In this document: piece by piece, positions 7,484 through 42,412 of the stretch
How positions within the stretch are numbered: position 1 is the stretch's first letter
Layout: each line of letters starts with the position of its first letter
Assembly (NCBI GenBank): GCA_964648335.1
Contig: CAZYLZ010000006.1
Location: 3,974-67,973, forward strand
DNA: 64,000 nucleotides
Source of the DNA: an uncultured Candidatus Saccharibacteria bacterium
Lineage (GTDB): Bacteria > Patescibacteriota > Minisyncoccia > Phycocordibacterales > UBA2100
Direction of reading: 5' to 3'
Notes under the pieces: model-generated
Told to the model about the DNA's origin: nothing
The model's input: only the letters and a program-made list of their open reading frames with translations
Databases searched by the model: none
Made by a program: the position numbers and the translations under genes

Positions 7484-7484
7484 A

Positions 7485-7994
7485 TCATTTTCTTAGGTAG
7501 ACGACCGTTTTAAAATCTTGATCTACCACCTGTCCGGTCGGCGTTCGGGCCGAAACGGTAAAGGATGCTTCTACGCTCTCGGGGTCCGTACCTCCGCCGA
7601 AGGCATGACTGAAGGAAAGCGCACTAATCTCGACGTTATCGTTATTGAGAACGTTTGCAGTGTTCGCGCCGCGTGCAAGCGTCATGTCTGTGCCCACAAG
7701 CTGAACCACGATTGGATGTGGGATCGCGGTGTCCCACTTGGTTACTGAGAGAGACGCTCCAGTATTGCCCACTGCAGGATCATCGACGGCACGAGCACCC
7801 GAGAGTACCCAGCCGATCTTGGCGACCAAGAAATTTCCCTCTTCTTGCACCAACGAGCGCGTAACCGAACGCGTACTAGCCTCGGCGATCGAATACGCGG
7901 CTGTGACGGCGCCGCCGATGATGATACCGAAGAGTGCCATGTACATGAGCGCTTCGATGAGTGTGAACCCGCGTGTGTGAGTCTGTCGTTTCAT
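7485..7994 (-). CDS. Type IV pilin-like protein
   Basis: MKRQTHTRGFTLIEALMYMALFGIIIGG prepilin motif. Start at the internal Met. Confidence 0.75.
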   Translation of the reverse strand: MKRQTHTRGFTLIEALMYMALFGIIIGGAVTAAYSIAEASTRSVTRSLVQEEGNFLVAKIGWVLSGARAVDDPAVGNTGASLSVTKWDTAIPHPIVVQLVGTDMTLARGANTANVLNNDNVEISALSFSHAFGGGTDPESVEASFTVSARTPTGQVVDQDFKTVVYLRK

Positions 7995-7995
7995 A

Positions 7996-9483: not shown

Positions 9484-9484
9484 A

Positions 9485-9973
9485 TCAGTGGGTCCAGGCG
9501 ATCGTACCTTCGACGCCGAATGTGATGGTTGATGATGATATCCCGTCGGTGATGGCGACCTCGGTGCCGGAAGGATACGTAGTGACGTCACCCGAGAGTG
9601 TATCGAAGACGACGTCAGAAACCGGACCTGAGAACGATACCGGGTACTCGGGTACGGTCACGATATCGACTGCTGTGTCGCGCGCTGCATACGACGTACC
9701 TTGAAAGAGTACATACTGCCCTCCTGACAGGTGCACACCGTGCGCCTTTCCAGCAGTACAACCCGTACCGAGGCAAATGTTGTTCATGCTCTCGGCGCGC
9801 GCTTTGTGGATCATCGCGACAAGCTTGTCACGTTCGCCGCGCAGCGACGATTTGCGGAAGGTATCCATGCCGACGAGCATGCTCATGCTACCGATGATAC
9901 CGACGAGCCCCATCACAACGAGAAGCTCAATCAGTGTGAAGCCGCCGGTGCGGACCAGACCTCTCCTACTCAT
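9485..9973 (-). CDS. Type IV pilin-like protein
   Basis: MSRRGLVRTGGFTLIELLVVMGLVGIIG prepilin motif. The start abuts the pilC stop. Confidence 0.75.
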   Translation of the reverse strand: MSRRGLVRTGGFTLIELLVVMGLVGIIGSMSMLVGMDTFRKSSLRGERDKLVAMIHKARAESMNNICLGTGCTAGKAHGVHLSGGQYVLFQGTSYAARDTAVDIVTVPEYPVSFSGPVSDVVFDTLSGDVTTYPSGTEVAITDGISSSTITFGVEGTIAWTH

Positions 9974-9974
9974 C

Positions 9975-11255
9975 TTAGCCGTGCAAGCTTTGCGTAATGC
10001 CATAAATAGGAGTGATGATCGATACCGCGATGAATCCGACGAGAAGCCCCATGAAGATCATGAGCAAAGGCTCGATCAGTGTGGAGATATCTTTGGCGAA
10101 GTCGTCGACTTCGTTCTCGTAAAGGTCCGAGAGGTAGAGGAGCGTGTTCGAGAGGTTACCCGTCTTCTCACCAACTGCTACAAGTTGGGCGAGGATGTCG
10201 GGAAAGACGTTGCGATGGGCTGCCAGGTAAGTCGACATCCGCTCGCCGCGGTTGATCGTGTGCGCAAGCGCGCGGAAGTGTCGCTTGTAAACCAGATTCT
10301 GCGAAGTATCTGCGGTCAGGGGAAGTGCTTCTGACAAGGTGACGCCACCCTTGAGCATGATACCGAGCGTGCGCGTCGCGTTTGCAAGATTGTAGTACTG
10401 CACCATCTTTCCGACGAGAGGAATTTGGAGCAGGAATCCATGGAAGTACATGCGACTCGCCTTGTTCTTCTTGATGAGGATCGAGAAGGCGGTCACGAAA
10501 AGAACTATCCCCGCGGATAGCGCGAAACCACTCTTCTGCAAGAAATTGCTGATTGCTATGACGATCTGAGTCGACATTGGCAAGGTCATGTGGAGGCTCG
10601 AGAAGATCGGCATAATCTTCGGGAACAGATAGACCATGAGGAAGATCGTTATGCCGACAGTCGCCGTCGTGATGAGCGCCGGGTACACCAACGCACCGAT
10701 CACCTTGCGGCGGAGGATCTGCTTCTTCTTGAGTTCGTCGGCAAGATAGTCGAGGTTCTCGCTCAATACCCCGCTCGACTCACCCACTTTTATGATGTTG
10801 ATCGCAAAATCACCGAACACGTGCGGGAATTTTCCGAAGCTTTTGGAAAGCGCCTGGCCCTGCGACGTGTCTTCTATAATTTGGTCAAGTATGCGGCGGT
10901 GGCTGCGGGTGCGCGATTGCGTGCGCAAGATATGGAGGCTCTCGAGCATCGGAACGCCTGCTCGGGTAAGGAATGAAAGACGCTTGGCAAAGAATGTCTG
11001 CTCTTTTATAGCGAGTCGCGGCGCGACATACTGATCCATCATCATCGCGAGCCTGGTGAAGCGAGACCGGTCGTCATAGCTACGCTTTACCGGAAGCGCT
11101 TTCGGTTCGTCGGGCTCGGGTTCGGTCGGGTCGGTGGGATTGCCGGGCAGCTTCGGGAAGAACGAGAGCTTGGCCGGCTGTCGTCGTACTCGCTCGCCCG
11201 CTATCGAAAACAATATGCGAGCGATGTTCTCGAAGGGTGCGGTTGCGATGTTCAT
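9975..11255 (-). CDS. pilC: Type IV pilus assembly platform protein PilC / GspF family
   Basis: Two GspF-type repeats with polytopic membrane segments, 426 aa, directly downstream of the ATPase gene. Confidence 0.8.
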   Translation of the reverse strand: MNIATAPFENIARILFSIAGERVRRQPAKLSFFPKLPGNPTDPTEPEPDEPKALPVKRSYDDRSRFTRLAMMMDQYVAPRLAIKEQTFFAKRLSFLTRAGVPMLESLHILRTQSRTRSHRRILDQIIEDTSQGQALSKSFGKFPHVFGDFAINIIKVGESSGVLSENLDYLADELKKKQILRRKVIGALVYPALITTATVGITIFLMVYLFPKIMPIFSSLHMTLPMSTQIVIAISNFLQKSGFALSAGIVLFVTAFSILIKKNKASRMYFHGFLLQIPLVGKMVQYYNLANATRTLGIMLKGGVTLSEALPLTADTSQNLVYKRHFRALAHTINRGERMSTYLAAHRNVFPDILAQLVAVGEKTGNLSNTLLYLSDLYENEVDDFAKDISTLIEPLLMIFMGLLVGFIAVSIITPIYGITQSLHG

Positions 11256-11256
11256 A

Positions 11257-12504
11257 TTATTCGTGAATGACGCGTAATACCTCCTCGAGCGTTGTGAGAC
11301 CTGCCTCGACTTTCTTGAGTCCGTCGTCGAACATCGTCGTCATACCGTTCTTTATGGCGATATTTTTTATGTCTGCCGACGATGCACGCGCGAGGATCGC
11401 CTCACGGATCTCGGCATCGGCGACGAGCACCTCGTTGATACAGAGACGTCCGGAATAGCCGCTTCCATTGCAGGAGGCGCAGCCCGCTCCGCGGTGAAGC
11501 TTGGTCTTAGGGTCGATAGTACGGCCGGTCGTGAGCAAGAGATGCTCGCGCAAGGCGTCGGTGAACTCGGTCTCTTCCTTGCAGTCCGAGCAGATTTTGC
11601 GCACGAGTCGCTGGCCGATCGCGATGGAGACCGTCGTCGCAACCAAGAATCCTTCGATCTTCATGTCCAACAGACGTGGAATGGTCGTCGCCGCGTCGTT
11701 GGTATGTACGGTAGAGAGAAGGAGGTGTCCGGTGAGCGCTGTATTGACCGCGATACCAGCGGTCTCGGCATCACGGATCTCGCCGACCATGATGACATTT
11801 GGGTCCTGGCGCAAGATACTCCGAAGACCATTGGCAAACGTAAGCCCGGTGCGTGCGTTAACTTGTATTTGCTCTATGCCGTCGACGGAATACTCGATCG
11901 GGTCTTCGATGGTGATGATGGAAATGTCCGGCGACTTGAGCATCCGCACCAGCGTATACAAGGTAGTCGTCTTTCCCGATCCAGTCGGACCAGTCGCGAG
12001 AATCATGCCGGTCGGCTTCTTGATTGCCTGCAAGATCTTGCGTTTGTCTTCGGGACTGAACCCAAGGTCGTCGAGCGTAAAATCTTCGGCATTGCTCGAA
12101 AGGAGGCGCAGCACCGCATTCTCTCCGTGATACGTAGGACAAATCGAGACACGGATGTCGATGAAGGCTGTCTCGCCCATAGTGTGCCGGATGCGGCCAT
12201 CTTGTGTAGCGTTGTGCTCGTCAGTGCGTAACGATGCGAGAACTTTTATACGCGAAATAACCTCGCCGTGGATCTCTTTAGGCAAGAGGCACACCTGTTG
12301 CAACACGCCATCGACGCGAAAGCGGATGCGGACGCCTGTAAGGCTCGGGTCGATATGGATGTCTGAGGCGCGCATCTCGCTCGCCTTCTCGATGATGGCA
12401 TCGACGACATTTATGATGGAGCAATTGATTCCCCGAGCAAGCTCGAGGTCGAGTTTGCTTATGAGCACGTGCGAATTTATTTTTGGAATTACGGTATCCA
12501 TAGC
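11257..12504 (-). CDS. pilB: Type IV pilus assembly ATPase PilB/GspE family
   Basis: Walker A GPTGSGKTT, a tetracysteine CSDC...CASC zinc motif typical of GspE/PilB, and a GSPII N-domain. Start could be 12504 or the upstream Met at 12588. Confidence 0.8.
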   Translation of the reverse strand, partial: AMDTVIPKINSHVLISKLDLELARGINCSIINVVDAIIEKASEMRASDIHIDPSLTGVRIRFRVDGVLQQVCLLPKEIHGEVISRIKVLASLRTDEHNATQDGRIRHTMGETAFIDIRVSICPTYHGENAVLRLLSSNAEDFTLDDLGFSPEDKRKILQAIKKPTGMILATGPTGSGKTTTLYTLVRMLKSPDISIITIEDPIEYSVDGIEQIQVNARTGLTFANGLRSILRQDPNVIMVGEIRDAETAGIAVNTALTGHLLLSTVHTNDAATTIPRLLDMKIEGFLVATTVSIAIGQRLVRKICSDCKEETEFTDALREHLLLTTGRTIDPKTKLHRGAGCASCNGSGYSGRLCINEVLVADAEIREAILARASSADIKNIAIKNGMTTMFDDGLKKVEAGLTTLEEVLRVIHE

Positions 12505-12646
12505 GTGCAGAATTCTGTCGTAGCGGCCAATCAGACAGCGGAAATTTGCTGTAGGACATTTATACGCCCAGAGGGCCTCTACCCGCAACCAAAAACGCGT
12601 GGTTTGCTATGCGAAAGGTGGCGCAAAACAGCACTACACCACGCTT

Positions 12647-20184: not shown

Positions 20185-20698
20185 AGAATGTTCGGATTGC
20201 TTTCGCTCGGCGACTGGCTCGGTCGTACTGATGGCGGAAAAGTGTCCGGTAGATTCGAGTATGGGCTTCACGTATGAAGCAGCGGTTAACAAAAAACCCA
20301 GGACATTGATCCAGGGTAGTACTGTCTACGAGCTCCACGAAAAACAGACCGTTCAAGTCGTGCTTTTCTGCAATCTCTTCGTTCAGATACGAGCCGGATC
20401 GTCTGTCGTTAACCGTCATACACGAGAAGCTCTCGCGTATGCGTATAGAAATACTCCTATAAGCGGGCATCGTCAAGCAGACAAAGGATGAAAATGATGG
20501 TCGCATGTCTAACTAATGGAGAAATCGCGGCTCAGGCACCAGTGGCAATCACTGGCCCAGAGGCCTGCACGGACGTCAATATTTTTTTAACTCTCTGCAT
20601 GGTAGTGTTTTCGATTGACCGGTCTGCGGTCAGCTTTATCAACGCCTTTGCAGGCGTATTCTGCAAAGGTATTTACCGGATTACAGAATCATTTCAGT

Positions 20699-22693
20699 AT
20701 GACTAGCATTTCTCGATACAGCTCGACAGATACGATCGCGCTTGCCGTTGCCATCGTGGCACTCATAGCGCTCGTGTTCTCGCCGATTTCTCATATTACT
20801 AAGGCAAACTCCCTCTTGGGATCGACCCACCTCTCGATCGCGCATGCAGAAGGCGATGGAGGGGGCGGTGACGGAGGTGGAGGCGATGGCGGAGGTGGTG
20901 ATGGCGGAGGCGGAGATGGTGGTGGTGACGGAGGTGGAGATGGTGGTGGAGATGGCGGAGGTGACGGAGGCGGAGATGGTGGTGGTGACTCCGGCGGAAG
21001 CGATGGTGGAGGCAGCGACTCCGGCTCTGGAGATTCTGGCTCCGGTGACTCGGGCATGGGCAGCGACGGCGGATGCTGCGGCGGCGGAGACGACTCGGGC
21101 TCAGAAGGCGGAAGCAACGGCATTTTCGTGCCGGTAATTCCGTCGACTCCGGTCGCAAACCCTTCGTGCTCTCTCAGCTCGATCAAGATCCCGATCCCGT
21201 TCGTCGGCGACGCCGCGGTCCTCTTTTGGAGCTCGTCGAACGCCACATCGGCTTCGATCGACCACGGAATCGGGGCTCTCTCCCCTGTCTCGGTAGGTAC
21301 TCGCGTGATCTCAAGCATCACGGCGACTACCAAGTACACAATGACGGCAGTCGGTGCAAATGGGGCAAAGGCTATCTGCTCGACGACAGTTACCGTGACG
21401 CCTGTCACGCCAAAACCTACCTGTGTCATCACTGCGACCCCAGGATCGATCGCAACGGGCGGCCATAGCGTCCTTTCTTGGAACTCGACTGACGCCGCAT
21501 CGGCAACGATCGACAACGGATTGGGATCGGTCATGACGAGCGGCGCTCAGAGCGTCTCTCCAACGGCAAACACTCAGTACACTATGACCGTTACAGGTAC
21601 CGGCGGTACCGCTACCTGCAACGCGACGGTAGTAGTCACGAATGTCCCTCCTCCTGCACAGCCAACATGCACGATCTCGGCGTACCCTTCTGAGGTCTCT
21701 CAGGGCGGATCGTCGGTACTCACCTGGTCGTCGACAAACGCATCGTCGGCATCCTTGAATGGCGGCATCGGGGCCGTGTCGACCAATGGATCACGATCAG
21801 TGACTCCGTCGTCAAACACAACCTATGTCCTAACGGTGACAGGTTCGGGCGGAACCGCGACATGCAGTGCACCAGTGACGATCAAGAACACTCCTCCAAC
21901 GCAGCCTTCGTGCACCCTCTCGGCCAGCCCGACACAGGTCGTGGCAGGCGGCGCGAGCGTCCTCTCGTGGACCTCGAACAACGCGACATCGGCAACCTTG
22001 GGTGCATTTGGAACGGTCGCCGTAAACGGATCGACCACCGTAACCCCGAGCGTCAACACAACGTACACACTCACCGTAACCGGTGCAGGAGGCACTGCGA
22101 CGTGCACGGCACACGTGACTATCAAGTCTGTACAGACATACACTCCGACCTGCTCTATCTGGGCAATCCCGGATGAGCAGATCGTTCCTGGTGGATCCAC
22201 GGCACTCTCGTGGTCTTCGACCAACGCATCGTCGGCATCGATCGATAACGGCATCGGGGCAGTGAGCCTCGAGGGCACACGTACCGTGTCGAATCTCTGG
22301 GACGACACCATCTTCACGATGAACGTTTCGGGCCAGGGCGGAACAGCACAGTGCTCGGTACCGGTATTCCTCAAGGAGACGACTCCAAAGCCGCCGAAAA
22401 AGCCAACCTGTGATATCCACATGGGTGGCAAGAACGCATACGGTGCCGAAGAGACCATCGCATGGAACACCGACGACGACGTCGACTCGGTAGAGATCGA
22501 GGGCGCCGGCGAAGTCCCTAAGCACGGATGGCGCGGCATCATGAAGCTCGACAAGCAGACCACCTTCAAGATGAAGGTAAAGAAAGGAACCCAGGTCACC
22601 GAATGCTCTTGCGTAGGAAACCCTATCGAGGACAAGTCGGCAGACTGGAGCAGCTGGTCTAACCAGGGCTGGCAGCACAGCGCGTGGTACTAG
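20699..22693 (+). CDS. Secreted/anchored tandem-repeat surface protein with Gly/Asp-rich low-complexity tract and 5-6 Ig-like ~85-aa repeats
   Basis: TM/signal N-terminus. (GDGGG)n then (SGSGD)n tract. Repeats of the form PTCTISA.P..V..GGSSVLTWSSTNASSASL.GIGAVS..TYVLTVTGSGGTATC. Start set at MTSISRY (20699). Confidence 0.65.
   Translation: MTSISRYSSTDTIALAVAIVALIALVFSPISHITKANSLLGSTHLSIAHAEGDGGGGDGGGGDGGGGDGGGGDGGGDGGGDGGGDGGGDGGGDGGGDSGGSDGGGSDSGSGDSGSGDSGMGSDGGCCGGGDDSGSEGGSNGIFVPVIPSTPVANPSCSLSSIKIPIPFVGDAAVLFWSSSNATSASIDHGIGALSPVSVGTRVISSITATTKYTMTAVGANGAKAICSTTVTVTPVTPKPTCVITATPGSIATGGHSVLSWNSTDAASATIDNGLGSVMTSGAQSVSPTANTQYTMTVTGTGGTATCNATVVVTNVPPPAQPTCTISAYPSEVSQGGSSVLTWSSTNASSASLNGGIGAVSTNGSRSVTPSSNTTYVLTVTGSGGTATCSAPVTIKNTPPTQPSCTLSASPTQVVAGGASVLSWTSNNATSATLGAFGTVAVNGSTTVTPSVNTTYTLTVTGAGGTATCTAHVTIKSVQTYTPTCSIWAIPDEQIVPGGSTALSWSSTNASSASIDNGIGAVSLEGTRTVSNLWDDTIFTMNVSGQGGTAQCSVPVFLKETTPKPPKKPTCDIHMGGKNAYGAEETIAWNTDDDVDSVEIEGAGEVPKHGWRGIMKLDKQTTFKMKVKKGTQVTECSCVGNPIEDKSADWSSWSNQGWQHSAWY
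20862..21060 (+). repeat. Coding microsatellite-like (GGN GAY)n tract encoding (GDGGG)n/(SGSGD)n
   Basis: ggcgatggagggggcggtgacggaggtggaggcgatggcggaggtggtgatggc... periodic repeat, slippage-prone. Confidence 0.8.
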
Positions 22694-27900: not shown

Positions 27901-29412
27901 ATGGCCCAGAAACCAACGCACACCTCTCATATCACCGAGCGTCCTCCGGTCGTCGTAGTGATGGGCCACGTCGATCACGGCAAATCGTCGCTCCTCGACT
28001 ACATTAGACACACTAACGTTGTCTCGGGTGAAGCCGGCGGCATAACGCAGCACGTAGCGGCATACGAAGTCGTGCACGAGGGCAAAGAGGGCAAGAAACG
28101 GATCACCTTCATAGACACTCCTGGACACGCGGCATTCACCGCAATCCGTTCGCGCGGAGCGAACGTCGCGGATATCGCTATCTTGGTGGTCTCGGCCGAG
28201 GATGGCGTCAAAGAGCAGACGCTCGAGGTACTAAAGAGCATCCAGGATTCAGAAACACCTTACGTGGTTGCAATAAACAAGATCGACAAGCCGAACGCCG
28301 ACATCGAGCGCACCAAGGTTACCCTCATGGAGCACAACGTGTTTCTCGAAGGGCTCGGTGGCGATGTACCTTGGGTTCCTATTTCTGCCAAAACTGGCCA
28401 AGGCATCCCCGACCTCCTCACGACCGTACTTCTTCTTGCCGAGATAGAAGAGCTTACGGGCGACGAGAATGCGCCTGCAGAGGGATTCGTCATCGAAGCA
28501 AACCGCGATTCGCGCCGTGGCATCGCAGCAACCCTCATCATCACCAACGGATCGCTCAAGATCGGCAACGCGATCCGCGCAAGCACGGCGATCGCTCCGC
28601 TGCGTATACTCGAAGACACCATGGGTAAAAAGCTTAAGAGCGCCGAGATGTCATCACCGATCGTGGTCGTCGGCTTTGACGAACTGCCGCTTGCCGGTAC
28701 GTCGTTCGTCACCCACAACAACAAGCGCGATGCCGAAGAGGCTCGCTCGGCGTTTGTGCGCGCACGCGGCCGCGTTGTGCCACAAGCAGTTGCAGCACAG
28801 GGCACCAAGCACATCATCCCCATCATCATCAAGGCAGATGCGGCAGGATCTCTTGAGGCGCTTCTTCAGGCTTGTGGAGCGCTTGCTACCGAATACGCAG
28901 CCATCACGGTCATCCAGAGCGGTATCGGTCCTGTTTCCGAAAACGACACCAAATCGTCTCTGGCGTCCGGCAGCGCTACCATCATCGCGTTCAACGTGAC
29001 CACCGACAAAAACGCGCTCGAGGCTGCACGCCAGCACTCGATCCCGATCGAAACCTTCGACATCATCTACAAGCTCGTCGAGCGTCTCGAGGCCATCATC
29101 AAGAACCGCACGCCAAAACGATCCGTCGAGAAAGTCTTGGGAACCATTAAGCTCTTGAAGCACTTCAGCAAGCAGAAAGAGTTGCAGGTCGTGGGTGGTC
29201 GGGTCGAGGAAGGAACGCTCGCCAAGAAGGCGAATCTCAAGGTCTCTCGTCGCGGCGTCGTCTTAGGCTACGCCAAAGTGGTTAACCTGCAGTCGCACAA
29301 GCAAAACGTCGAGCGTGTCGATGCCGGCGGTGAGTTCGGCGCACAGCTCGAGGCTGTGTTCGAGATGGCTCCGGGCGACACGCTCGAGAGCATCCAAACC
29401 GTCGAAGAATAA
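27901..29412 (+). CDS. infB: Translation initiation factor IF-2, short form beginning at the G domain
   Basis: [22 protein letters not shown] GTPase motifs. 503 aa. Followed by rbfA. Confidence 0.85.
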
Positions 29413-34341: not shown

Positions 34342-34365
34342 GCCCATAATGTCACTTCGTTCCTG

Positions 34366-34447
34366 TGGGCAGAGGGAGACTCGAACTCCCATGCCTTGCG
34401 GCGTCGCGTCCTAAGCGCGGTGCGTCTACCAATTTCGCCATCTGCCC
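34366..34447 (-). tRNA. tRNA-Leu(UAG)
   Basis: Minus-sense GGGCAGATGGCGAAATTGGTAGACGC..CCGCG CTTAGGA CGCGA..GGGAGTTCGAGTCTCCCTCTGCCCA. Anticodon TAG. Confidence 0.8.
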
Positions 34448-34536
34448 GTCCAGCCGAGTATAGCGCACCTGGCCTGTTTTCAAAACGAAATAACCTGTTA
34501 GAATAGCCCTCGTATCGGCAAAGGCTTATACAGTAT

Positions 34537-34609
34537 GCGCCCGTAGCTCAGTTGGTAGAGCAGCCGCCTCTTAAGCGGTAGGTCCATGGTTCGAGTCCAT
34601 GCGGGCGCA
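34537..34609 (+). tRNA. tRNA-Lys(CUU)
   Basis: GCGCCCGTAGCTCAGTTGGTAGAGCAGCCGCCTCTTAAGCGGTAGGTCCATGGTTCGAGTCCATGCGGGCGCA. Anticodon CTT. Confidence 0.9.
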
Positions 34610-34619
34610 CCGGAGACAA

Positions 34620-34756: not shown

Positions 34757-34797
34757 CGAAAATACAAAATCCCCTGTGGGGATCTTTGTATTTTATT
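34757..34797. terminator. Terminator hairpin at end of minus-strand small-protein array
   Basis: atacaaaatcccctgtggggatctttgtatttt. Confidence 0.6.
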
Positions 34798-34805
34798 TTG
34801 GTTCC

Positions 34806-34985
34806 TCATCGGACGTCTGCAGACTCCGCGAGGCTCCGGGTGTATTCTTCGAGCCTCTTACGATTCTCTTGTATCGCCTTCTCCAAGTTCGCAAGGCAGC
34901 GCCGGGCATGTGCCAGGTCGCGCTCGCGCGCCGCTATCTCGCCTCGATACCACGTAACCTCCTGTTGTATGTGTTGCGTATTCAT
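34806..34985 (-). CDS. Small coiled-coil protein P1 (59 aa; not in ORF table because <60 aa)
   Basis: Reverse translation MNTQHIQQEVTWYRGEIAAREADLAHARRCLANLEKAIQENRKRLEEYTRSLAESADVR. Paralogous pattern with the next two genes. Confidence 0.4.
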   Translation of the reverse strand: MNTQHIQQEVTWYRGEIAARERDLAHARRCLANLEKAIQENRKRLEEYTRSLAESADVR

Positions 34986-35035
34986 ATTTCACATATACAT
35001 GAACTGTATAGAGAAAGTATGAAGATAGTTTCAGC

Positions 35036-35290
35036 TTACCTTTTCTGCCCCGCCTGCTTCCTCAGATCATCGGCATACCGTTCCATATCCCTCTTATAAC
35101 CATCGAGCTTTGTCTTGCCACCTGCCATGTAGCGAGTCAGCTCTCCTTCGGCACGCTTCGCGTCATCTAGCTCGCGCGCAAGTCGAGCCTGTGTGCTTTT
35201 GTTCTTCTCTAATTCTCCCTGCTTTATCTCGAGTTCCCTGGTCCACCATGCCGCCTCGCTCTTTGCCTTTTCGATATTTATATCTGCCAT
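35036..35290 (-). CDS. Small coiled-coil protein P2 (84 aa)
   Basis: EAAWWTRELEIKQGELEKNK..., heptad-rich and charged. Same (W/R)(W/Y)xxE(L/I)....ELEK pattern as P1 and P3. Confidence 0.45.
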   Translation of the reverse strand: MADINIEKAKSEAAWWTRELEIKQGELEKNKSTQARLARELDDAKRAEGELTRYMAGGKTKLDGYKRDMERYADDLRKQAGQKR

Positions 35291-35343
35291 ATCTATGAGT
35301 TTATACTTTGTACCTGGTAAATAGCATGAAGGCAGCGGGCACC

Positions 35344-35592
35344 TTAATGAAGCTTGACCGACCCCTTGCGCTGCACCTCGTCGAACTCCGCCTTCGAGAG
35401 CTCGCGCTCTGCCATGCTCTTTTTTTGGCGGTCGCTCCTGATCTTCGCCTCGAGCTGCGCCGCGTGCACCTTAATCTTCTCAAGATCTTCTATCGTGCGC
35501 TTAGCTTTTTCGAGTTCTCGTTCCGCATTCTTGAGTTCTTCGCCGTATCGTTGGATGACCTGCTTTATCTGGGGGATGTCCATGGAGAGCAT
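35344..35592 (-). CDS. Small coiled-coil protein P3 (82 aa)
   Basis: QRYGEELKNAERELEKAKRTIEDLEK pattern. Confidence 0.45.
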   Translation of the reverse strand: MLSMDIPQIKQVIQRYGEELKNAERELEKAKRTIEDLEKIKVHAAQLEAKIRSDRQKKSMAERELSKAEFDEVQRKGSVKLH

Positions 35593-35599
35593 TATCTTC

Positions 35600-35941
35600 T
35601 TAAAAGCCCGTGGTTCCCGTCGGAAACGGGGATGTCGATCCGCTGTCGCGGTTGATACCTGTACTGTACGTCTGGCCGCGTATATCGAGCCCGAAAGTAT
35701 CGTCGATAAGCGAGATGATACTGCCGACCGCCACCATGATGAACATGCCGATGATGCCGTAGATCATATGATTCTTCCCGTCTGCGTTCTCGCCCCCCGA
35801 CTCCACGCTCCGCATAAACTGGAACAGTCCCCACACAAACACCAAAAATCCTACCGAGAATATCAGTAGGATTATTGGGTTGATGATGTATTCAACAATG
35901 CGGCCCAGGAGCTCTGCCCCGCTGGTTGCTGAAAAGTTCAT
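35600..35941 (-). CDS. Small two-TM membrane protein M1 (paralog family)
   Basis: Two hydrophobic helices separated by a short charged loop. C-terminal pattern (K/A)xR..IYG.I..F(V/M).V..I shared with M2-M4. Confidence 0.5.
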   Translation of the reverse strand: MNFSATSGAELLGRIVEYIINPIILLIFSVGFLVFVWGLFQFMRSVESGGENADGKNHMIYGIIGMFIMVAVGSIISLIDDTFGLDIRGQTYSTGINRDSGSTSPFPTGTTGF

Positions 35942-35963
35942 ACACTAAATCTATCGACGTGAG

Positions 35964-36323
35964 CTAGAAGCTCGTGCCCTGGAGCTGAATCGCCTTAGGG
36001 ATGATTGGATCGGTCGAGGTGACCTTGAAGGTGCTCTGCAAGAGACGGATGATACCCCAGACCGACACCATGACGAAGAGCGAAAGGATGCCGTAGATCA
36101 TAATGTCGCGTGCCTTCTCCTTCGACTCGTCTCCAGAGCCGATGTACTGGATGAGTCCCCAAAAGAAGTAGATGAGCGCCAAAGTGATCAGCATCGGTAT
36201 GACCGCGTTCAAGACCGTGTTCACCAAGTTGAGGGTGTCGAGAAACGTTACTGCTCCAGCCACTGCAGGGATCGTTACTGCTGCGATGGCGAGTGCTCCT
36301 GCGAGCTTGGGGCTAAAGTTCAT
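35964..36323 (-). CDS. Small secreted two-TM membrane protein M2 (VirB2/TrbC-like topology)
   Basis: Signal peptide MNFSPKLAGALAIAAVTIPAVAGA, TM1, loop GSGDESKEKARD, TM2. Confidence 0.5.
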   Translation of the reverse strand: MNFSPKLAGALAIAAVTIPAVAGAVTFLDTLNLVNTVLNAVIPMLITLALIYFFWGLIQYIGSGDESKEKARDIMIYGILSLFVMVSVWGIIRLLQSTFKVTSTDPIIPKAIQLQGTSF

Positions 36324-36362
36324 ACGGGGCGATTAGTTAAAGCTAGTGATATAGATACCATT

Positions 36363-36746
36363 TTACCCCCGAAGCGTCTCTTTAGGTTCTGCCGCTGTGG
36401 ATAGCATATGTGCATCGGGCCCTCGAGCGCTTCCAGCGGCGTCAAGGCTACTCTGGAGGATGCGCAGTATCCCCCAGATGGACACGGCTACGAACAGGAT
36501 GAGTATGCCCCAGCCGAAAATCTGCGACCGCTTAGCAAGACCGCCCTCTTCGAGATTCTGCGTCGAGTTGAATCCGATCCACATATAGTAGACAACCATG
36601 AGCGTAAGGATGGTCGGTATAAGCAAATCTATGATGCCGACGAACCAATTGACCAGATCGTCGAACGTCTTAGGTGCGGCAAAGGCCACCGCCGGCATCA
36701 CTATCAAGATGGCGAGGAGGAAGGTTATGCGTCGTGTGTACGCCAT
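36363..36746 (-). CDS. Small secreted two-TM membrane protein M3
   Basis: Signal peptide ..MPAVAFA|AP, TM1, loop NSTQNLEEGGLAKRSQ, TM2. Confidence 0.5.
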   Translation of the reverse strand: MAYTRRITFLLAILIVMPAVAFAAPKTFDDLVNWFVGIIDLLIPTILTLMVVYYMWIGFNSTQNLEEGGLAKRSQIFGWGILILFVAVSIWGILRILQSSLDAAGSARGPDAHMLSTAAEPKETLRG

Positions 36747-36747
36747 A

Positions 36748-37128
36748 TTAGCCGCGCAGCTGCTCTACGGTTCCTGCCAGTATTTGCGAAAGGGCCCACG
36801 CACCCAATATCATGATCGCTCCAATGACGACGTACAGGAAGTTGCGCTTTGCCGCCTCGATGCCGCTCGAGTTGCCGCGTGCAACCACAAACTGGAACCC
36901 AGCGTACACAATGAATACGCTGATGATGGGGAGCGAGATTGTGACTAGTGCTTTCAAAAGGCCCGATATGAATTCGGGGAAGGAGCAGAATTGGAGCGGG
37001 TTACTGAGACGCCCAGCATCGTTGGAACCGCATGCAGCGAATGTCGGGGTCACGCCTGCAAGCCACAGGCAGGTCGCCGAAGCGGCTAACGTACCGACCT
37101 TGTCATATGTCGAGGTAAATAGTTTCAT
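36748..37128 (-). CDS. Small secreted two-TM membrane protein M4 (possible lipobox FAAC)
   Basis: Signal peptide with TFAAC, TM1, loop ARGNSSGIEAAKRN, TM2. Confidence 0.5.
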   Translation of the reverse strand: MKLFTSTYDKVGTLAASATCLWLAGVTPTFAACGSNDAGRLSNPLQFCSFPEFISGLLKALVTISLPIISVFIVYAGFQFVVARGNSSGIEAAKRNFLYVVIGAIMILGAWALSQILAGTVEQLRG

Positions 37129-37135
37129 GAGTGAT

Positions 37136-38443
37136 CTAGAGTCCTAGTAAGTTTGATATCTCCTTATCAGCGCGCTGGACGGCGTCAGAAAGCTTGAGCG
37201 ACCCGCTCGTCACGTCGTTAATCATAGCGCGAAAGACCTGATCGGTCTTTGCCGCATCTGGGTCCAAGAAACCGCGCGAGATTATCGCATCAAGCCTGAA
37301 CACCTCGTCGGCGCCGTCGACCGGCTTTGCAAGAACATCGCGCCGTGACGAGGCCAGTCCCCACGCTGTTGCAAGCTGCGTCGTTGCCTCCGCAGTAGCA
37401 AGCTTCTTGGCAATAGCAAACGCGGCCGTCGGATTGCGCGCAGCCTTTGGAATTGCCAAGCCATAGAGCTTGCCAAACGACACGCTCCGCTTTGCTACCT
37501 GGATCTGCGGCAGCTGGGCGATAGCGAAGTTAAGGTTAGGATTCTGCGCCTTTATGAGCGGAAGCTCGCTCGCAGTGCCGATATAGAGCGCGAGGTCGCC
37601 CGACGTGAAAGCAAGGAGCGAGTCGGGCATGGACCGATTCCACGAGTAGACGTTCTTGCTCGGATCGGCAAAGGTAGTAAAGAAACGTACTGCGCTGTCG
37701 CCAGGCTGGATCGCCGACGCCGTCTTTGCCGACAATTGCGAAACGACACGACCTTGTACATCGCGACCTGTAATCTCGCCCCCTGCCTGCATCACCAAGG
37801 CGCTGAGAATCTCTTTTGCATGTCGTACGTTATCAAACGATCCGAAAGCTATCGTGCTCGTCTGCACCGTTCCGGCGTCATCGCGCACGGTTAGCTTTTC
37901 TGCCATCTTAAAGACCTCTTCCCAATACTTGGGTGCAGCCGCGTATCCCTGTGCCGCGAGCATGTCCTTGTTCCAGTACAAGACGAGCGGGTCGACCACA
38001 AGCGGGATCGCAAGCACGCCTGCAGGTGTTAGAAACAGCTGCGACTCGTCGATAAACATACTCTGGAACGTCTGTTCTGGCAGCGAATCGAACGGTACGG
38101 TCACGATCTTGGCCTGCTGCGAAAAAACCTGATCTTGGGTCAGCATGAAGAGATCGGGACCTGCGCCGCTAGCGAGTGCGTTGGCAAGGTCGTAGTCGTA
38201 GGTACGGGCGTCCTTTTGTTCGTAAGTCACCTGTCGGAGCGTGTCGTCGTTTTCGGCAAGCGAACGAATTACGGTCGTCATGGCACGCTCGTCGAGTGTC
38301 CCCCATATGTGGATTGGACCGATATCTTTCGCAGAGCTCGTCCCTCCCAACACTCCCGAGAAGAACAAGAGGCCGACTACGGCAAAGATACCGAATCCTG
38401 CCATCAGAAAGAGTTGAAACGGAGTTGCTTTGCTGCTATCCAT
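37136..38443 (-). CDS. Membrane-anchored extracellular solute-binding-protein-like protein (ABC SBP family 1-like)
   Basis: N-terminal TM anchor. ~400-aa periplasmic-binding-protein-like composition. No permease or ATPase genes adjacent. Confidence 0.35.
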   Translation of the reverse strand: MDSSKATPFQLFLMAGFGIFAVVGLLFFSGVLGGTSSAKDIGPIHIWGTLDERAMTTVIRSLAENDDTLRQVTYEQKDARTYDYDLANALASGAGPDLFMLTQDQVFSQQAKIVTVPFDSLPEQTFQSMFIDESQLFLTPAGVLAIPLVVDPLVLYWNKDMLAAQGYAAAPKYWEEVFKMAEKLTVRDDAGTVQTSTIAFGSFDNVRHAKEILSALVMQAGGEITGRDVQGRVVSQLSAKTASAIQPGDSAVRFFTTFADPSKNVYSWNRSMPDSLLAFTSGDLALYIGTASELPLIKAQNPNLNFAIAQLPQIQVAKRSVSFGKLYGLAIPKAARNPTAAFAIAKKLATAEATTQLATAWGLASSRRDVLAKPVDGADEVFRLDAIISRGFLDPDAAKTDQVFRAMINDVTSGSLKLSDAVQRADKEISNLLGL

Positions 38444-38452
38444 AGAGATTGG

Positions 38453-39151
38453 TTATATTCGCTTTACGACGAGCCCATAATGGTGCGAGCCGGCGTCGAA
38501 CTCGCGCACCAAGGCAAACCCATTGCGCGACACGAGCGCAAGCGCCGCTTCTTTCGTCACGAGATGATCCTCGTGAGGACCGATAGCGCCCGATCCCCCG
38601 CTGTCAGACCAGTCGATGATGACCGCCAATCCGCCGGGAACGAGGATACGCTTTGCTTCAACGAGCACCGCATCGCGGTGTTCTGCCTGGAAAAGCATAT
38701 TAGAGACAAGCACCATGTCGAGCGACGATGCGGCAATCTTACTACCATCCTTGCTTTCGACGTTTCCCCAGACGATGTCGATGTTGTGACGGTTATCGCG
38801 CACTGCCGTGTTGCGGATACGAAGCAGCAGGTCTTGTTGAACGTCGACAGCAAAGATATGCCCGGCGACTCCGACCGCCTCGGCAAGTGCAAGAGTATAT
38901 ACCCCCGACCCTGCGCCGAAGTCTGCTACGCGCATACCTTCTTTAATGGGCAGTTGCGAGATGATCCGCGAGGGCTGCACGAATGCTTTCGGGACGTTCG
39001 CGGCGACCGCGGTTTCGTGACTTGCCTTTGGTGTTGCGACGAGTTTATGCGGGAACATGCGTAGTATCAGTATACCCTGCCGCATAATCGATACCGAGCC
39101 ACTATCAACAAAATGCCCCGCGATCGAGGTAGATCGCGGGGCGCCCTTCAT
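38453..39151 (-). CDS. Class I SAM-dependent methyltransferase
   Basis: Motif I VADFGAGSGVYT, motif II HIFAVDV. The upstream small-gene stop overlaps this start (ATGA), supporting the 39151 start. Confidence 0.6.
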   Translation of the reverse strand: MKGAPRSTSIAGHFVDSGSVSIMRQGILILRMFPHKLVATPKASHETAVAANVPKAFVQPSRIISQLPIKEGMRVADFGAGSGVYTLALAEAVGVAGHIFAVDVQQDLLLRIRNTAVRDNRHNIDIVWGNVESKDGSKIAASSLDMVLVSNMLFQAEHRDAVLVEAKRILVPGGLAVIIDWSDSGGSGAIGPHEDHLVTKEAALALVSRNGFALVREFDAGSHHYGLVVKRI

Positions 39152-39330
39152 CGTTTGGCCTTGGCTGTCGGAGCCGACTTAGTCGGCGCCTTCTGCGGAA
39201 GCCGCTCGCTCATCGTATACAACATGTAGTTGTTGAACGTAAGCTGCGCTATCAAGACTACGATGACCCAGAACCATGCACGCTTCATGTACTGCGGTAC
39301 GCGTATCTGGGGCTTATTGGGTAACTTCAT
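39148..39330 (-). CDS. Small membrane protein (60 aa)
   Basis: MKLPNKPQIRVPQYMKRAWFWVIVVLIAQLTF with aaggagtt SD. Start at the internal Met of ORF 39148..39390. Confidence 0.4.
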   Translation of the reverse strand: MKLPNKPQIRVPQYMKRAWFWVIVVLIAQLTFNNYMLYTMSERLPQKAPTKSAPTAKAKR

Positions 39331-39399
39331 GTGTAACTCCTTTGCTTGAACTTGCTGTACCATACTCCTTCTTCTGCAAATGCAAAGCATCTATGAACG

Positions 39400-39440
39400 A
39401 AAGACCCGCGGCAACTGCCGCGGGTCTTTCGTTTTCGTAT
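39400..39440. terminator. Terminator hairpin downstream of gyrA
   Basis: gaaagacccgcggcaactgccgcgggtctttcgttttcg. Confidence 0.6.
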
Positions 39441-39450
39441 CGCGTTAGAA

Positions 39451-41943
39451 TCAGGCCACTTCGTCTCCCTCGAAAATGACGAAGGATGCTACCTGGTCGC
39501 CTTCGCGCATCTTCATGATGCGTACTCCCTGCGTCGCGCGGCCGAGTGCCGGGATCTCGTCGAGCGCAGTGCGGATCGTCTGGCTCTTCTGGCTCATTGC
39601 TACCAGCTCGCCACCCTTTTGTACAACGGCAGCACCGACGAGCTGCTTGGTCTTGGCAGTTATCGACATCGTCTTGATGCCCGAGCCGCCGCGTCCCTGG
39701 ATTTTGTATTCCTTGAGCGGTGTCTTTTTGCCGTACCCGGTGGAAGAAAGCACCAGAAGCTCTGCGTCTTTTGCTTCTTTCGGCACGACTCCGGCGCCGA
39801 CAATCACGTCTCCCGATCCGAGCTTCATACCGCGCACTCCTGCCGCCTGGCGACCCATCTCGCGAACTTCGCCTTCGGCAAATCGAATCGACTGTCCCTT
39901 GGACGTGGTCATGAGGACGCTGTCGCCTTTGTTGACGAACTGTGCCGATATGAGGGCATCGCCCTTGTCGAGGGTGATAGCGATAAGACCGGAACGGCGT
40001 ACTTCTTTAAATGCTTCTGCCTTGGTCTTTTTGACGGTTCCGTCCTTGGTCGCCATAAGAAGCGAGAGTTCTCCGGTATTCTTGAGCTCTTTTGGCATGG
40101 CCAAAATAGAAGTGATACTCTCTCCTTCTTCGAGCGACAAGAAGTTCATGATCGACTTGCCTTTGGTTGCGCGGCGCCCCTCGGGGAGCTCGTACATCTT
40201 GAGCTGATACGCCTTTCCGCGATCCGAGAAGAACAACAGATCGCTGTGCGCAGAAGCGGTCACGAACTGCGTTACGAAATCCTCATCTTTAGTATCCAAA
40301 TCGACGACACCTACGCCTCCGCGCTTCTGGCGGCGGTACTCGGATGGATTAGTACGCTTGATGTAGCCTCCCGACGTAAGGACGAGCACCGAGTCTTCGT
40401 CGGGCACCAGGTCCTCGACCGAGAAGGTCTTGGCACCGCGCTTTACAATCTTGGTGCGGCGGTCGTCTCCGTATTTCTCTGCGATCTCTTTCAGTTCGGC
40501 CTTGATGACGCCGAGCATCTTCTTTTCGGAAGCCAAGAGGGCTTTCAATTCCGCAATGAGCGCCTGTACTTCTTTGAGCTCGTCCTCGATCTTCTGACGC
40601 TCGAGATTCGCCAAGCGCTGCAGGCGCATTTCCAAGATTGCGGTCGCCTGCTTAGGCGAGAATCTGAATTCTTTTATGAGATTCGCATGTGCCGTCTCGA
40701 CGTCCTTGCTCTTGCGTATGAGTTTTATTACCTCGTCGATGTGATCGAGCGCCTTCTTGAGACCGAGCAAGATGTGCTCGCGCTCTTCTGCACGGAACAG
40801 GTCGTACTTGGTGCGGCGCGTGACGACCTCTTTTCGGTGCAAGACGAACGACTCGAGGAAGCCGCGCAAAGACAAGGTCTGCGGTATGCCGTCCACGAGA
40901 GCGACGCAGTTGTAGTGGAACGTTTCTTCGAGCTGGGTGTGCTTGTATAGGTAGTTGAGAACTGTCTGGGGATGCGATGTTCCCTTGAGGTCGATCGCGA
41001 TGCGGATATCTTTTGCCGACTCGTCGCGCAAGCCCTTGATGCCATCTACTTTTTTCTCGTGAACCAAGTCGGCGATCTTGCTTATGAGATCCGCCTTGTT
41101 TACGCGAAACGGCACCGACGTGATGATGATCTGCGTCTCGCCTTTCTTTCCTTCGACTATCTCGGCCTCGCCACGCACCACGACACCACCGCGCCCAGAC
41201 GCGTATGCCTGTGCAATGTCCTTTTGGTTAAACGCGATACAGCCTGTCGGAAAATCCGGACCCTGCACGAACTGCAGCAAGTCTTCGGTGGTGGCCTTTG
41301 GGTTGTCGATAAGATGCTCAGTCGCGGCGCAGACCTCGCGCAAGTTGTGCGGCGGGATGTTGGTCGCCATGCCCACGGCGATGCCAAGCGTGCCGTTGAC
41401 GAGGAGGTTAGGGAATCCTGCCGGCAGGACTACCGGCTCTTTGCGGGTGTTTTCGTAGTTTGGAGCAAAATCGACGGTGTCTTTTTCGATGTCTTTCAAC
41501 ATCATCAATGCAAGACGCGACATCTTGGCCTCGGTGTAACGCGACGCAGCTGGCGGATCGCCGTCGATGGAGCCAAAGTTTCCCTGGCCGATAACGAGCG
41601 GATAACGCATCGTAAAGTCCTGCGCCAATTTTGCGAGCGAGTCGTACACCGCGACGTCTCCGTGCGGATGGTAGTTACCCGTTACGTCTCCGGTGATCTT
41701 TGCCGATTTGCGCGTCTTGCCACCCGGGTTGAGGCCGAGCTCGTGCATGGTGTAGAGAATGCGACGGTGAACGGGCTTAAGACCGTCGCGGACATCAGGA
41801 AGCGCGCGTGCCGTAATGACCGACATCGCGTAGTCGAGATACGATTCGCGCATCTCTGCGGTGATAGAGCGGGCGATGACGCCCAAGCTCGGATCTCGTG
41901 GTTCTGGAGCGGCTTCTGCCTTTGCAACCTTTTTCTGAGCCAT
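39451..41943 (-). CDS. gyrA: DNA gyrase subunit A
   Basis: ALPDVRDGLKPVHRRILY, YHPHGD, a GyrA-box-like QKRGGVG in the C-terminal domain, 830 aa. Confidence 0.9.
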   Translation of the reverse strand: MAQKKVAKAEAAPEPRDPSLGVIARSITAEMRESYLDYAMSVITARALPDVRDGLKPVHRRILYTMHELGLNPGGKTRKSAKITGDVTGNYHPHGDVAVYDSLAKLAQDFTMRYPLVIGQGNFGSIDGDPPAASRYTEAKMSRLALMMLKDIEKDTVDFAPNYENTRKEPVVLPAGFPNLLVNGTLGIAVGMATNIPPHNLREVCAATEHLIDNPKATTEDLLQFVQGPDFPTGCIAFNQKDIAQAYASGRGGVVVRGEAEIVEGKKGETQIIITSVPFRVNKADLISKIADLVHEKKVDGIKGLRDESAKDIRIAIDLKGTSHPQTVLNYLYKHTQLEETFHYNCVALVDGIPQTLSLRGFLESFVLHRKEVVTRRTKYDLFRAEEREHILLGLKKALDHIDEVIKLIRKSKDVETAHANLIKEFRFSPKQATAILEMRLQRLANLERQKIEDELKEVQALIAELKALLASEKKMLGVIKAELKEIAEKYGDDRRTKIVKRGAKTFSVEDLVPDEDSVLVLTSGGYIKRTNPSEYRRQKRGGVGVVDLDTKDEDFVTQFVTASAHSDLLFFSDRGKAYQLKMYELPEGRRATKGKSIMNFLSLEEGESITSILAMPKELKNTGELSLLMATKDGTVKKTKAEAFKEVRRSGLIAITLDKGDALISAQFVNKGDSVLMTTSKGQSIRFAEGEVREMGRQAAGVRGMKLGSGDVIVGAGVVPKEAKDAELLVLSSTGYGKKTPLKEYKIQGRGGSGIKTMSITAKTKQLVGAAVVQKGGELVAMSQKSQTIRTALDEIPALGRATQGVRIMKMREGDQVASFVIFEGDEVA

Positions 41944-42019: not shown

Positions 42020-42412
42020 TCAGTTTTCAAACGACCCGCCAGTTGCCGTGGAATCGAGCTTGTAGGTGGCCTGTCCGCCCGTCGTACCACCCGAATTGGC
42101 CGCCTCGTCGCGGATGGCCTTGAGCTCGCTCGTTGCGTCGTTATAGCTTTTGCCAAACGAGTCTTGCGCCTCTTTTACGTTCGTAAACTGCATGATGTCC
42201 TTTTGCGGTCCCCACGACGTATCTACCTGCTCGCCATTGACTATCTTATGAAAAAAGAAGAACGCCCACGCGGCAAACAGGATAAAGCCGATGAGCGCAG
42301 CAGACCCGCCGGCTATGACCTTCTTCTGGTCTTTGGGCCGGTTCTGGAGATCACCAAGTTTGCTGGAGCCCGAAGCTCCCGAGCCCGTAAACGGATGCGT
42401 ACTTTGCATCAC
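42020..42412 (-). CDS. Hypothetical single-TM membrane protein
   Basis: IAGGSAALIGFILFAAWAFFFF TM segment. 130 aa. Confidence 0.4.
   Translation of the reverse strand: MMQSTHPFTGSGASGSSKLGDLQNRPKDQKKVIAGGSAALIGFILFAAWAFFFFHKIVNGEQVDTSWGPQKDIMQFTNVKEAQDSFGKSYNDATSELKAIRDEAANSGGTTGGQATYKLDSTATGGSFEN

Follow-up and report, generated by a model that had tools for sequence, protein, structure and literature searches.

An ordered array of predicted VirB2-like pilin genes downstream of genes for a methyltransferase and a solute-binding-like protein on a Patescibacteria chromosome

Does a run of seven small genes on the chromosome of an uncultured Candidatus Saccharibacteria bacterium encode an undescribed surface-filament or envelope system, or does it belong to something that already has a name? 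The genes lie in a stretch of 64,000 nucleotides (contig CAZYLZ010000006.1, positions 3,974 to 67,973; hereafter the window). An earlier reading made from the sequence alone (the sequence-only reading) divided them into three small coiled-coil proteins (P1–P3) and four small proteins with two transmembrane (TM) segments (M1–M4), which were proposed to act together as a new two-family system. All seven open reading frames (ORFs) are present on the minus strand where that reading placed them (Table 1). They close a tight co-oriented string (34766-41943, minus strand) that runs gyrA, a small TM ORF, a methyltransferase gene, a gene for a solute-binding-protein-like (SBP-like) protein, M4-M3-M2-M1 and P3-P2-P1. 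The proposal of an undescribed system is not supported, because M1–M4 fall in a named family (PF18895, T4SS_pilin) with described Patescibacteria arrays and with VirB4, VirB6 and VirB3 partners; P1–P3, moreover, are not conserved in relatives that keep the array. We favour, with a probability of roughly 75%, a chromosomal Patescibacteria operon in which four divergent VirB2-like pilins are served by a type IV secretion system (T4SS) encoded elsewhere, and in which P1–P3 are lineage-specific additions. The locus adds no new kind of system.

The family assignment of M1–M4 carries this reading. M4 (38.1 bits) and M2 (35.1 bits) exceed the PF18895 gathering threshold of 26.6 bits, in agreement with the existing annotation of identical contigs. 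M1 and M3 can be placed in the pilin family because both show significant paralogy with M2 (phmmer, E=2e-12 for M1–M2 and E=2e-14 for M2–M3), and jackhmmer joins the two to the family at E<=1e-50. The proposed single paralog family thus stands for M1, M2 and M3, with M4 as a more distant subfamily. Judged by these comparisons of sequence, M2 and M4 are VirB2-like pilins of PF18895, and M1 and M3 probably are so too. Their relation to VirB2/TrbC itself is remote: M3 (18.2 bits) and M4 (18.6 bits) match PF04956 weakly, at E values of 0.002–0.003 and below its threshold of 27.9 bits, and direct membership of PF04956 is not supported. M1, M2 and M4 also match Mbov_0395 (NCBIfam NF045849) at E~1e-4 and ~21 bits, where the cut-off is 40, and a profile of 28 family sequences matches the pKM101 pilus subunit TraM (8cw4) in the PDB at E=0.008.

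The VirB2/TrbC-like two-TM topology that had been proposed for M1–M4 is borne out, and it suits the VirB2-like group of PF18895. Hydropathy indicates a signal peptide followed by two TM segments in M2 and M3, with three hydrophobic segments in M3, and a weak N-terminal stretch ahead of the two TM segments of M4. M1 has just two TM segments; like its orthologs in two related loci (L017 and L019), it lacks a signal peptide. The claim that every M protein carries a signal peptide therefore stands for M2 and M3, is weak for M4 and is wrong for M1. An AlphaFold2 model of M2 has a signal-peptide helix and then helices at residues 27-62 and 65-103, at low confidence (predicted local distance difference test score (pLDDT) 60.8).

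Arrays of such genes have been described in Patescibacteria. In Saccharibacteria, 4-6 genes for small VirB2-related proteins with signal peptides stand in arrays within a syntenic region (McLean et al. 2018, 10.1101/258137). In Candidatus Southlakia epibionticum, the T4SS cluster includes six predicted pilins (SEML1_0014-0019), all assigned to PF18895 and all essential by transposon sequencing, which adjoin VirB6 and VirB4 (Wang et al. 2023, PMC10633639). VirB4 occurs in 2,417 of 3,035 Patescibacteria assemblies (~80%). Of the VirB4-positive assemblies, 1,948 have VirB2-like pilins; the pilins lie near virB4 in only 1,135 of these 1,948 and are remote from it in ~800 (Quinonero-Coronel et al. 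2025, PMC12102498). The same study reports 441 arrays of 2-11 pilin genes with a mean paralog identity of 25%, and T4SS genes that are often dispersed; a 2025 FEMS review gives the same picture of the pilin arrays. The window fits this description, with four tandem, same-strand, divergent pilin genes and nearest relatives labelled Patescibacteria, Parcubacteria or Saccharibacteria. A Pfam scan of essentially all large ORFs of the window found no VirB4, VirB6, VirD4, secretin or ABC permease, which agrees with the earlier remark that VirB4, a secretin and an ABC permease are missing nearby; a type IV pilus PilB/PilC pair lies ~23 kb away. As the window holds no T4SS gene, its array belongs to the virB4-remote class.

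The array has constant company upstream. The SBP-like protein scores above threshold for PF13416 (77 bits) and PF01547 (66.6 bits), has an N-terminal TM segment at residues 6-38 and matches maltose/trehalose-binding proteins remotely in the PDB (E=1e-8). The methyltransferase matches Methyltransf_25/31/11 (E~1e-11 to 1e-12). We collected related loci through the SBP-like protein, using genome and metagenome scans, a protein database and contig context look-ups. The contig scans returned relatives that are 34-40% identical and one 49% fragment, labelled Patescibacteria/Saccharibacteria. The protein database holds ~1,500 homologs at E<=1e-30, one of them 97% identical and many ~50% identical, labelled Parcubacteria/Kaiserbacteria. 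A Sphaerochaeta match (L009, 23% identity) was set aside as an ordinary SBP without an array.

All 21 loci with an SBP ortholog have 2-6 same-strand pilin-like genes directly downstream, a count that is limited by contig ends, and every locus that reaches far enough has a methyltransferase ortholog directly upstream. gyrA and a metallo-beta-lactamase-fold gene lie farther upstream in the relatives, at variable distance. Neither the window nor any of the 21 related loci has an ABC permease or ATPase partner for the SBP; the pilin genes always take the downstream position. Given this invariant co-location and co-orientation, together with gaps of only 7-9 nt on either side of the SBP gene, the methyltransferase, the SBP-like protein and the array are probably co-transcribed, and the neighbourhood suggests that the first two are functionally coupled to the third. 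The co-orientation of the array with these two genes is the most robust and the least described part of the original observation. The array studies consulted, which analysed the neighbourhood of virB4, are silent on this context; many lineages have the array linked to the methyltransferase and the solute-binding-like protein rather than to virB4. What seems to be new here is this gene order and the slot-specific orthology of the pilins.

Numbering the pilin positions from the SBP gene, with M4 in slot 1 and M1 in slot 4, each window gene resembles the gene at the same position in related loci more closely than it resembles its own neighbours. Identities to the same-position genes of L017 and L019 are 47% and 48% for M4, 38% in both for M3, 54% and 62% for M2, and 46% and 47% for M1; paralogs within the array share 13-35%, compared with 38-62% between positional orthologs. 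The slot types are recognizable again in two further loci (L021 and L022). Against the closest relative (L016, whose SBP is 97% identical), M2 is 100% and M4 97.6% identical, with ratios of non-synonymous to synonymous change (pN/pS) of 0.00-0.02; across the whole operon pN/pS is 0.00-0.09. M1–M4 are, on this comparative evidence, ancient paralogs in a fixed order. Orthology by slot and strong conservation argue against recent amplification or diversifying antigenic variation and favour a distinct structural role for each slot. The four pilins probably have non-equivalent roles, with slot 1, for example, as a tip or adhesin-bearing pilin and slot 4 lacking a signal peptide.

In some lineages the slot-1 pilin joins a T4SS_pilin domain at its C terminus to a large extracellular extension at its N terminus. 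It reaches 436 aa in L007:11290-12597 (the same gene as L011:3395-4711) and 324 aa in L013:6423-7394. The extension in L007 contains a thrombospondin type-1 (TSP_1) domain (45.4 bits), a domain that is unusual in bacteria. Such extensions fit a surface-exposed, adhesive role.

By analogy with VirB2/TrbC and with S. epibionticum, the pilins would be inserted into the membrane as helix-loop-helix hairpins by the Sec machinery, with the signal peptides of M2–M4 cleaved. A dispersed T4SS of monoderm type (MPF-FATA-like), with its VirB4, TrsD, VirB3/PrgI and VirB6 encoded elsewhere in the genome, could then extract and assemble them, and the product may be a heteromeric surface filament or conduit that is used in host contact. 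The SBP-like protein, and possibly the methyltransferase, would act with the array, the former perhaps as an extracellular binding or receptor component.

Several observations weigh against this reading. M1 reaches 25.3 bits against PF18895, 1.3 bits under the cut-off, and M3 has no PF18895 match in the Pfam scan. A Foldseek search of the PDB with the low-confidence M2 model returned only generic helical hairpins, none below E=1. Searches for VirB4, VirB6, VirB3 and VirD4 came up empty, both throughout the window and over the ±10 kb around the array in L004, L005, L017, L021 and L022, so that the link to a T4SS at this locus rests on family-level inference and literature statistics. Strong conserved synteny of the entire housekeeping region, from the metallo-beta-lactamase-fold gene and gyrA to RbfA and IF2, might by itself account for the linkage of the SBP and methyltransferase genes to the array. 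According to reviews, no PF18895 protein has yet been shown to form a pilus or filament. Such arrays have proved essential in the single Patescibacteria species tested so far, and a pilus is still to be observed.

It is conceivable, though we think it unlikely, that the triad is an undescribed envelope sub-module of Patescibacteria: a cytoplasmic methyltransferase, a TM-anchored SBP-like protein and 4-6 ancient, ordered VirB2-like paralogs, always unlinked to virB4, with the SBP-like protein serving a heteromeric pilus as the partner that binds a ligand or the host. Slot-1 pilins would then carry adhesin domains (TSP_1) in some lineages, P1 and P3 would represent a lineage-specific recruitment of new coiled-coil genes into the operon, and the module could even act independently of a T4SS.

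Taken to that point, 4-5 ordered pilin-like proteins would form, together with the methyltransferase and the SBP-like protein, an autonomous envelope module that needs no T4SS, one possibility being a binding-protein-dependent uptake or adhesion device with the small two-TM proteins as its membrane component. The invariance of the triad in 21 loci, labelled both Parcubacteria and Saccharibacteria, would suit such a module, as would the lack of T4SS genes within reach of the array and the silence of the studies consulted on the SBP context. S. epibionticum, in which the array stands beside VirB6, has no family-1 SBP, which suggests two distinct contexts for these arrays. In S. epibionticum, however, the same Pfam family is essential and forms part of a T4SS cluster (PMC10633639), and ~80% of Patescibacteria assemblies carry VirB4, often with dispersed T4SS genes (PMC12102498). 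The locus also lacks an energizing component, and the synteny of the whole surrounding region weakens adjacency as evidence. We consider this autonomous form quite improbable, and prefer pilins that depend on a T4SS encoded elsewhere.

The P proteins bear on the second half of the original proposal. P1–P3 differ from their counterparts in L016 by 9-20 synonymous and 2-4 non-synonymous changes (pN/pS of 0.04 for P3, 0.07 for P2 and 0.07 for P1), and the pattern of substitution marks them as real genes under purifying selection. Charged residues make up 36-44% of each protein (43% in P3), and none has a hydrophobic segment. The helical hairpin that had been raised as a question for them is not what is predicted for P2: the AlphaFold2 model is a single uninterrupted helix spanning residues 2-82 (pLDDT 90.5). 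Nor can all three be shown to be paralogs, as had been claimed. A hidden Markov model of the P3 family matches the first 50 residues of P1 at 25.6 bits, a score that none of 300 shuffled sequences reaches, which makes P1 and P3 paralogs over these N-terminal 50 residues; against P2 the same model scores 4.0 bits, a level reached by 29 of 300 shuffles. With BLASTP, P2 matches P3 at E=0.13, and P1 matches P2 at E=8e-4 with a 14-residue gap.

P2 is an orphan. A word-index search of 5.8 billion proteins found only P2 itself, and an exhaustive phmmer search of 1.84 billion representative proteins found only P2 and one other sequence (P0122), with no true homolog beyond the species cluster. The match to P0122 is an artefact, the sum of five identical repeats at 9.7 bits each. 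A 185-aa member of the P2 cluster (P0123, on a 2.8-kb Joint Genome Institute contig) is a frameshifted read-through of P3 into P2 that most likely stems from faulty assembly or sequencing; its database name, SbcCD ATPase subunit, is a misleading annotation of a coiled-coil sequence. The only homologs of P3 are P0129 (95%) and P0130 (62%), the latter on a 1-kb contig and followed by a small gene of 67 aa. Pfam, NCBIfam and PHROGs gave only sub-threshold coiled-coil noise for P1–P3. A WXG100/ESAT-6-like identity was rejected: there is no Pfam or NCBIfam match, none of the three contains a WXG motif, and P2 is predicted as a single helix.

The conservation of P1–P3 alongside the array, on which the sequence-only reading had staked its proposal in advance, is not found in the relatives that keep the array. 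P1–P3 are absent from L017-L022. Relatives whose SBPs are 52-53% identical lack them although they keep M4–M1, and they are absent from more distant arrays too. In relatives that lack P genes, M1 stands directly before a tRNA-Leu(tag)/tRNA-Lys(ctt) pair or before convergent genes. In the window, a P block of ~800 bp lies between M1 and this tRNA pair, and the pair itself is reversed in order and orientation relative to L017:11148-11364, L021:14111-14393 and L022:13655-13886. L004 and L019 show a third arrangement, and the junction behind the array looks like a hot-spot of rearrangement. The inverted pair and the block between it and M1 suggest that P1–P3 are a lineage-specific insertion at a rearrangement-prone junction. 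Comparison of the loci thus indicates that only this species-level lineage acquired the P genes, at the 3′ end of its operon, and that they are not part of the conserved module; we would guess at oligomeric accessory genes peculiar to the lineage, or at hitch-hikers. Behind the array and tRNAs of L022 lies a further protein (L022:14095-15747; 550 aa, 29% charged, no TM segment), the only match of which is a sub-threshold one to PcfJ-like proteins of the pCF10 conjugation region (E=0.005).

Could P1–P3 nevertheless be dedicated partners of the pilins, as chaperones, assembly factors or secreted substrates of a two-family system with M1–M4? Co-transcription with the array is likely, since P3 starts 7-16 nt past the stop of M1 and the only terminator-like hairpin lies beyond P1. 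Strong purifying selection on all three genes would agree with such a role, as would the 62% homolog of P3 on another contig, again with a small gene downstream. The relatives speak against it: orthologous M4–M1 genes occur there with no P-like gene, M1 being followed by tRNAs or convergent genes, the P genes are missing from more distant arrays as well, and P2 has no homolog among the 1.84 billion representative proteins. A module that works in most lineages without the P genes does not require them, and we give a dedicated partnership little credence. A gene that is transcribed together with a conserved module need not belong to it.

A further possibility is that the array arose by recent tandem amplification that serves antigenic or host-range variation, as proposed for the VirB2 paralogs of Bartonella and Anaplasma and suggested for arrays of the candidate phyla radiation (CPR). 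In its favour, the paralogs of the window are highly divergent (13-35% identity), in line with the 25% mean identity of the CPR arrays for which the hypothesis was raised (PMC12102498). Each slot, however, has its same-position ortholog in genomes whose SBP is only ~50% identical, the slot types recur in L021 and L022, and the near-identity of M2 and M4 to their L016 counterparts reflects conservation, not diversifying selection. Amplification of this kind is very improbable here.

That M1–M4 belong to some other class of small TM protein (holin/antiholin, Flp/type IV pilin or bacteriocin immunity protein), as their size and two TM segments would allow, is effectively refuted: the specific matches are to T4SS_pilin, TrbC and Mbov_0395, Pfam, NCBIfam and PHROGs give no holin, Flp or N_methyl match, and the genes lie in a conserved chromosomal housekeeping context, not in a prophage. 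The true type IV pilus genes of the window are elsewhere, at 7996-12588.

Table 1 Features of the operon and of the pilus and surface-protein cluster in the window
Feature	Position	Strand	Description
Terminator-like hairpin and T-run	34766-34786	-	Closes the operon; nine-pair stem, then GTATTTTCGT
P1	34806-34985	-	59 aa; cytoplasmic charged coiled-coil, paralog of P3
P2	35036-35290	-	84 aa; cytoplasmic, charged, predicted single helix, orphan
P3	35344-35592	-	82 aa (79 aa if start at 35583); cytoplasmic charged coiled-coil
M1	35600-35941	-	113 aa; slot-4 pilin paralog, two TM segments, no signal peptide
M2	35964-36323	-	119 aa; slot-3 pilin paralog, signal peptide and two TM segments
M3	36363-36746	-	127 aa; slot-2 pilin paralog, signal peptide and two TM segments
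M4	36748-37128	-	126 aa; slot-1 VirB2-like pilin, weak signal peptide and two TM segments
SBP-like gene	37136-38443	-	435 aa; membrane-anchored family-1 solute-binding-like protein
Methyltransferase	38453-39151	-	Class I, S-adenosylmethionine-dependent; directly 5′ of the SBP gene
Small basic protein	39148-39330	-	60 aa (80 aa from 39390); one hydrophobic stretch, between gyrA and the methyltransferase gene
gyrA	39451-41943	-	From the ORF list
tRNA-Leu(tag) and tRNA-Lys(ctt) pair	34365-34611		Downstream boundary of the array; ARAGORN, Rfam
PilB-like T2SSE	11257-12588	-	Pilus cluster
PilC-like T2SSF	9975-11255	-	Pilus cluster
531-aa protein	7996-9591	-	N_methyl motif and LVIVD repeat; pilus cluster
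1305-aa protein	3566-7483	-	VWA and SpaA-like; surface-protein cluster

Gaps between the genes of the string are 1-53 nt from the methyltransferase through P1. The terminator-like hairpin directly 3′ of the P1 stop is kept in L016 and is the sole convincing one in the string; another match (35873-35847) was dismissed as intragenic, inside M1. A promoter scan was at chance level (4 found, 3.3 expected), and Rfam found four tRNAs and no regulatory RNA. L016 uses the second methionine of P3, which gives the shorter product, and there the methyltransferase is annotated as 204 aa; in the window its true start is probably 39067, which would give the same length. The small ORF between gyrA and the methyltransferase gene is called as 60 aa in L001 and L016, is absent or replaced in L017, L021 and L022, and has no family match in Pfam or NCBIfam. 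Between the metallo-beta-lactamase-fold gene and gyrA lies an ORF of 130 aa (42020-42412, minus strand) with same-position counterparts of 117-131 aa in L015, L017, L021 and L022; its only family match is a sub-threshold one to a tail-sheath subdomain (E=4e-4).

The rest of the window is an ordinary CPR chromosome, with IF2, GlmS, S1, Pth, FtsA/FtsZ, a PilB/PilC pair and large surface proteins. The type IV pilus and surface-protein genes form a cluster at 3566-12588 on the minus strand. IF2 (27901-29412, plus strand) is only 503 aa long, without the extended N-terminal region; L004, L017, L021 and L022 have orthologs of 498-503 aa, and this short form is consistent with a CPR origin of the window. 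An ORF of 692 aa (20615-22693, plus strand) has no Pfam family at E<0.01, and several long minus-strand ORFs overlap it; either strand, or neither, may be coding.

Among known systems, the diderm pilins VirB2, TrbC and TraM (PF04956, 8cw4) share with the window pilins a signal peptide, a two-helix hydrophobic hairpin and a short charged loop. The window proteins differ in scoring below the PF04956 threshold, in their monoderm host, in forming several non-identical paralogs instead of one major pilin, and in having no VirB5 or VirB1 partner in the window. Mbov_0395 of the Mycoplasma integrative and conjugative elements resembles the M proteins in being small and pilin-like with two TM segments, and it comes from a monoderm (MPF-FATA) conjugation system; it is a single gene in a mobile element, whereas the window has a chromosomal array, and the ~21 bits are far below that family's cut-off. 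A precedent for a solute-binding-type protein beside a monoderm T4SS is the OppA-like binding protein PrgZ of pCF10 conjugation. It binds peptides, belongs to family 5 and supplies the Opp permease of the host in pheromone sensing; the SBP-like protein of the window is TM-anchored and of family 1 (sugar-type), so that the resemblance is one of analogy only.

The nearest likeness is to Patescibacteria themselves. The S. epibionticum array, like that of the window, consists of tandem same-strand genes of ~100-185 aa on a Patescibacteria chromosome, which encode divergent but structurally alike PF18895 proteins. There, six genes stand beside VirB6-like, PrgI/VirB3 and VirB4 genes, whereas the four genes of the window follow a methyltransferase and an SBP, and its 64 kb contain no T4SS gene. 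Neither a family-1 SBP nor trailing coiled-coil genes occur in S. epibionticum. The VirB2-like arrays surveyed across Patescibacteria (PMC12102498, 10.1101/258137) match the window in having 2-11 genes with ~25% paralog identity, often remote from virB4 and within a conserved syntenic region. Whereas those studies propose antigenic or host-range variation, the paralogs of the window are positionally orthologous and strongly conserved, and ancient, slot-specific pilins of this kind argue for a heteromeric structure rather than for antigenic variation.

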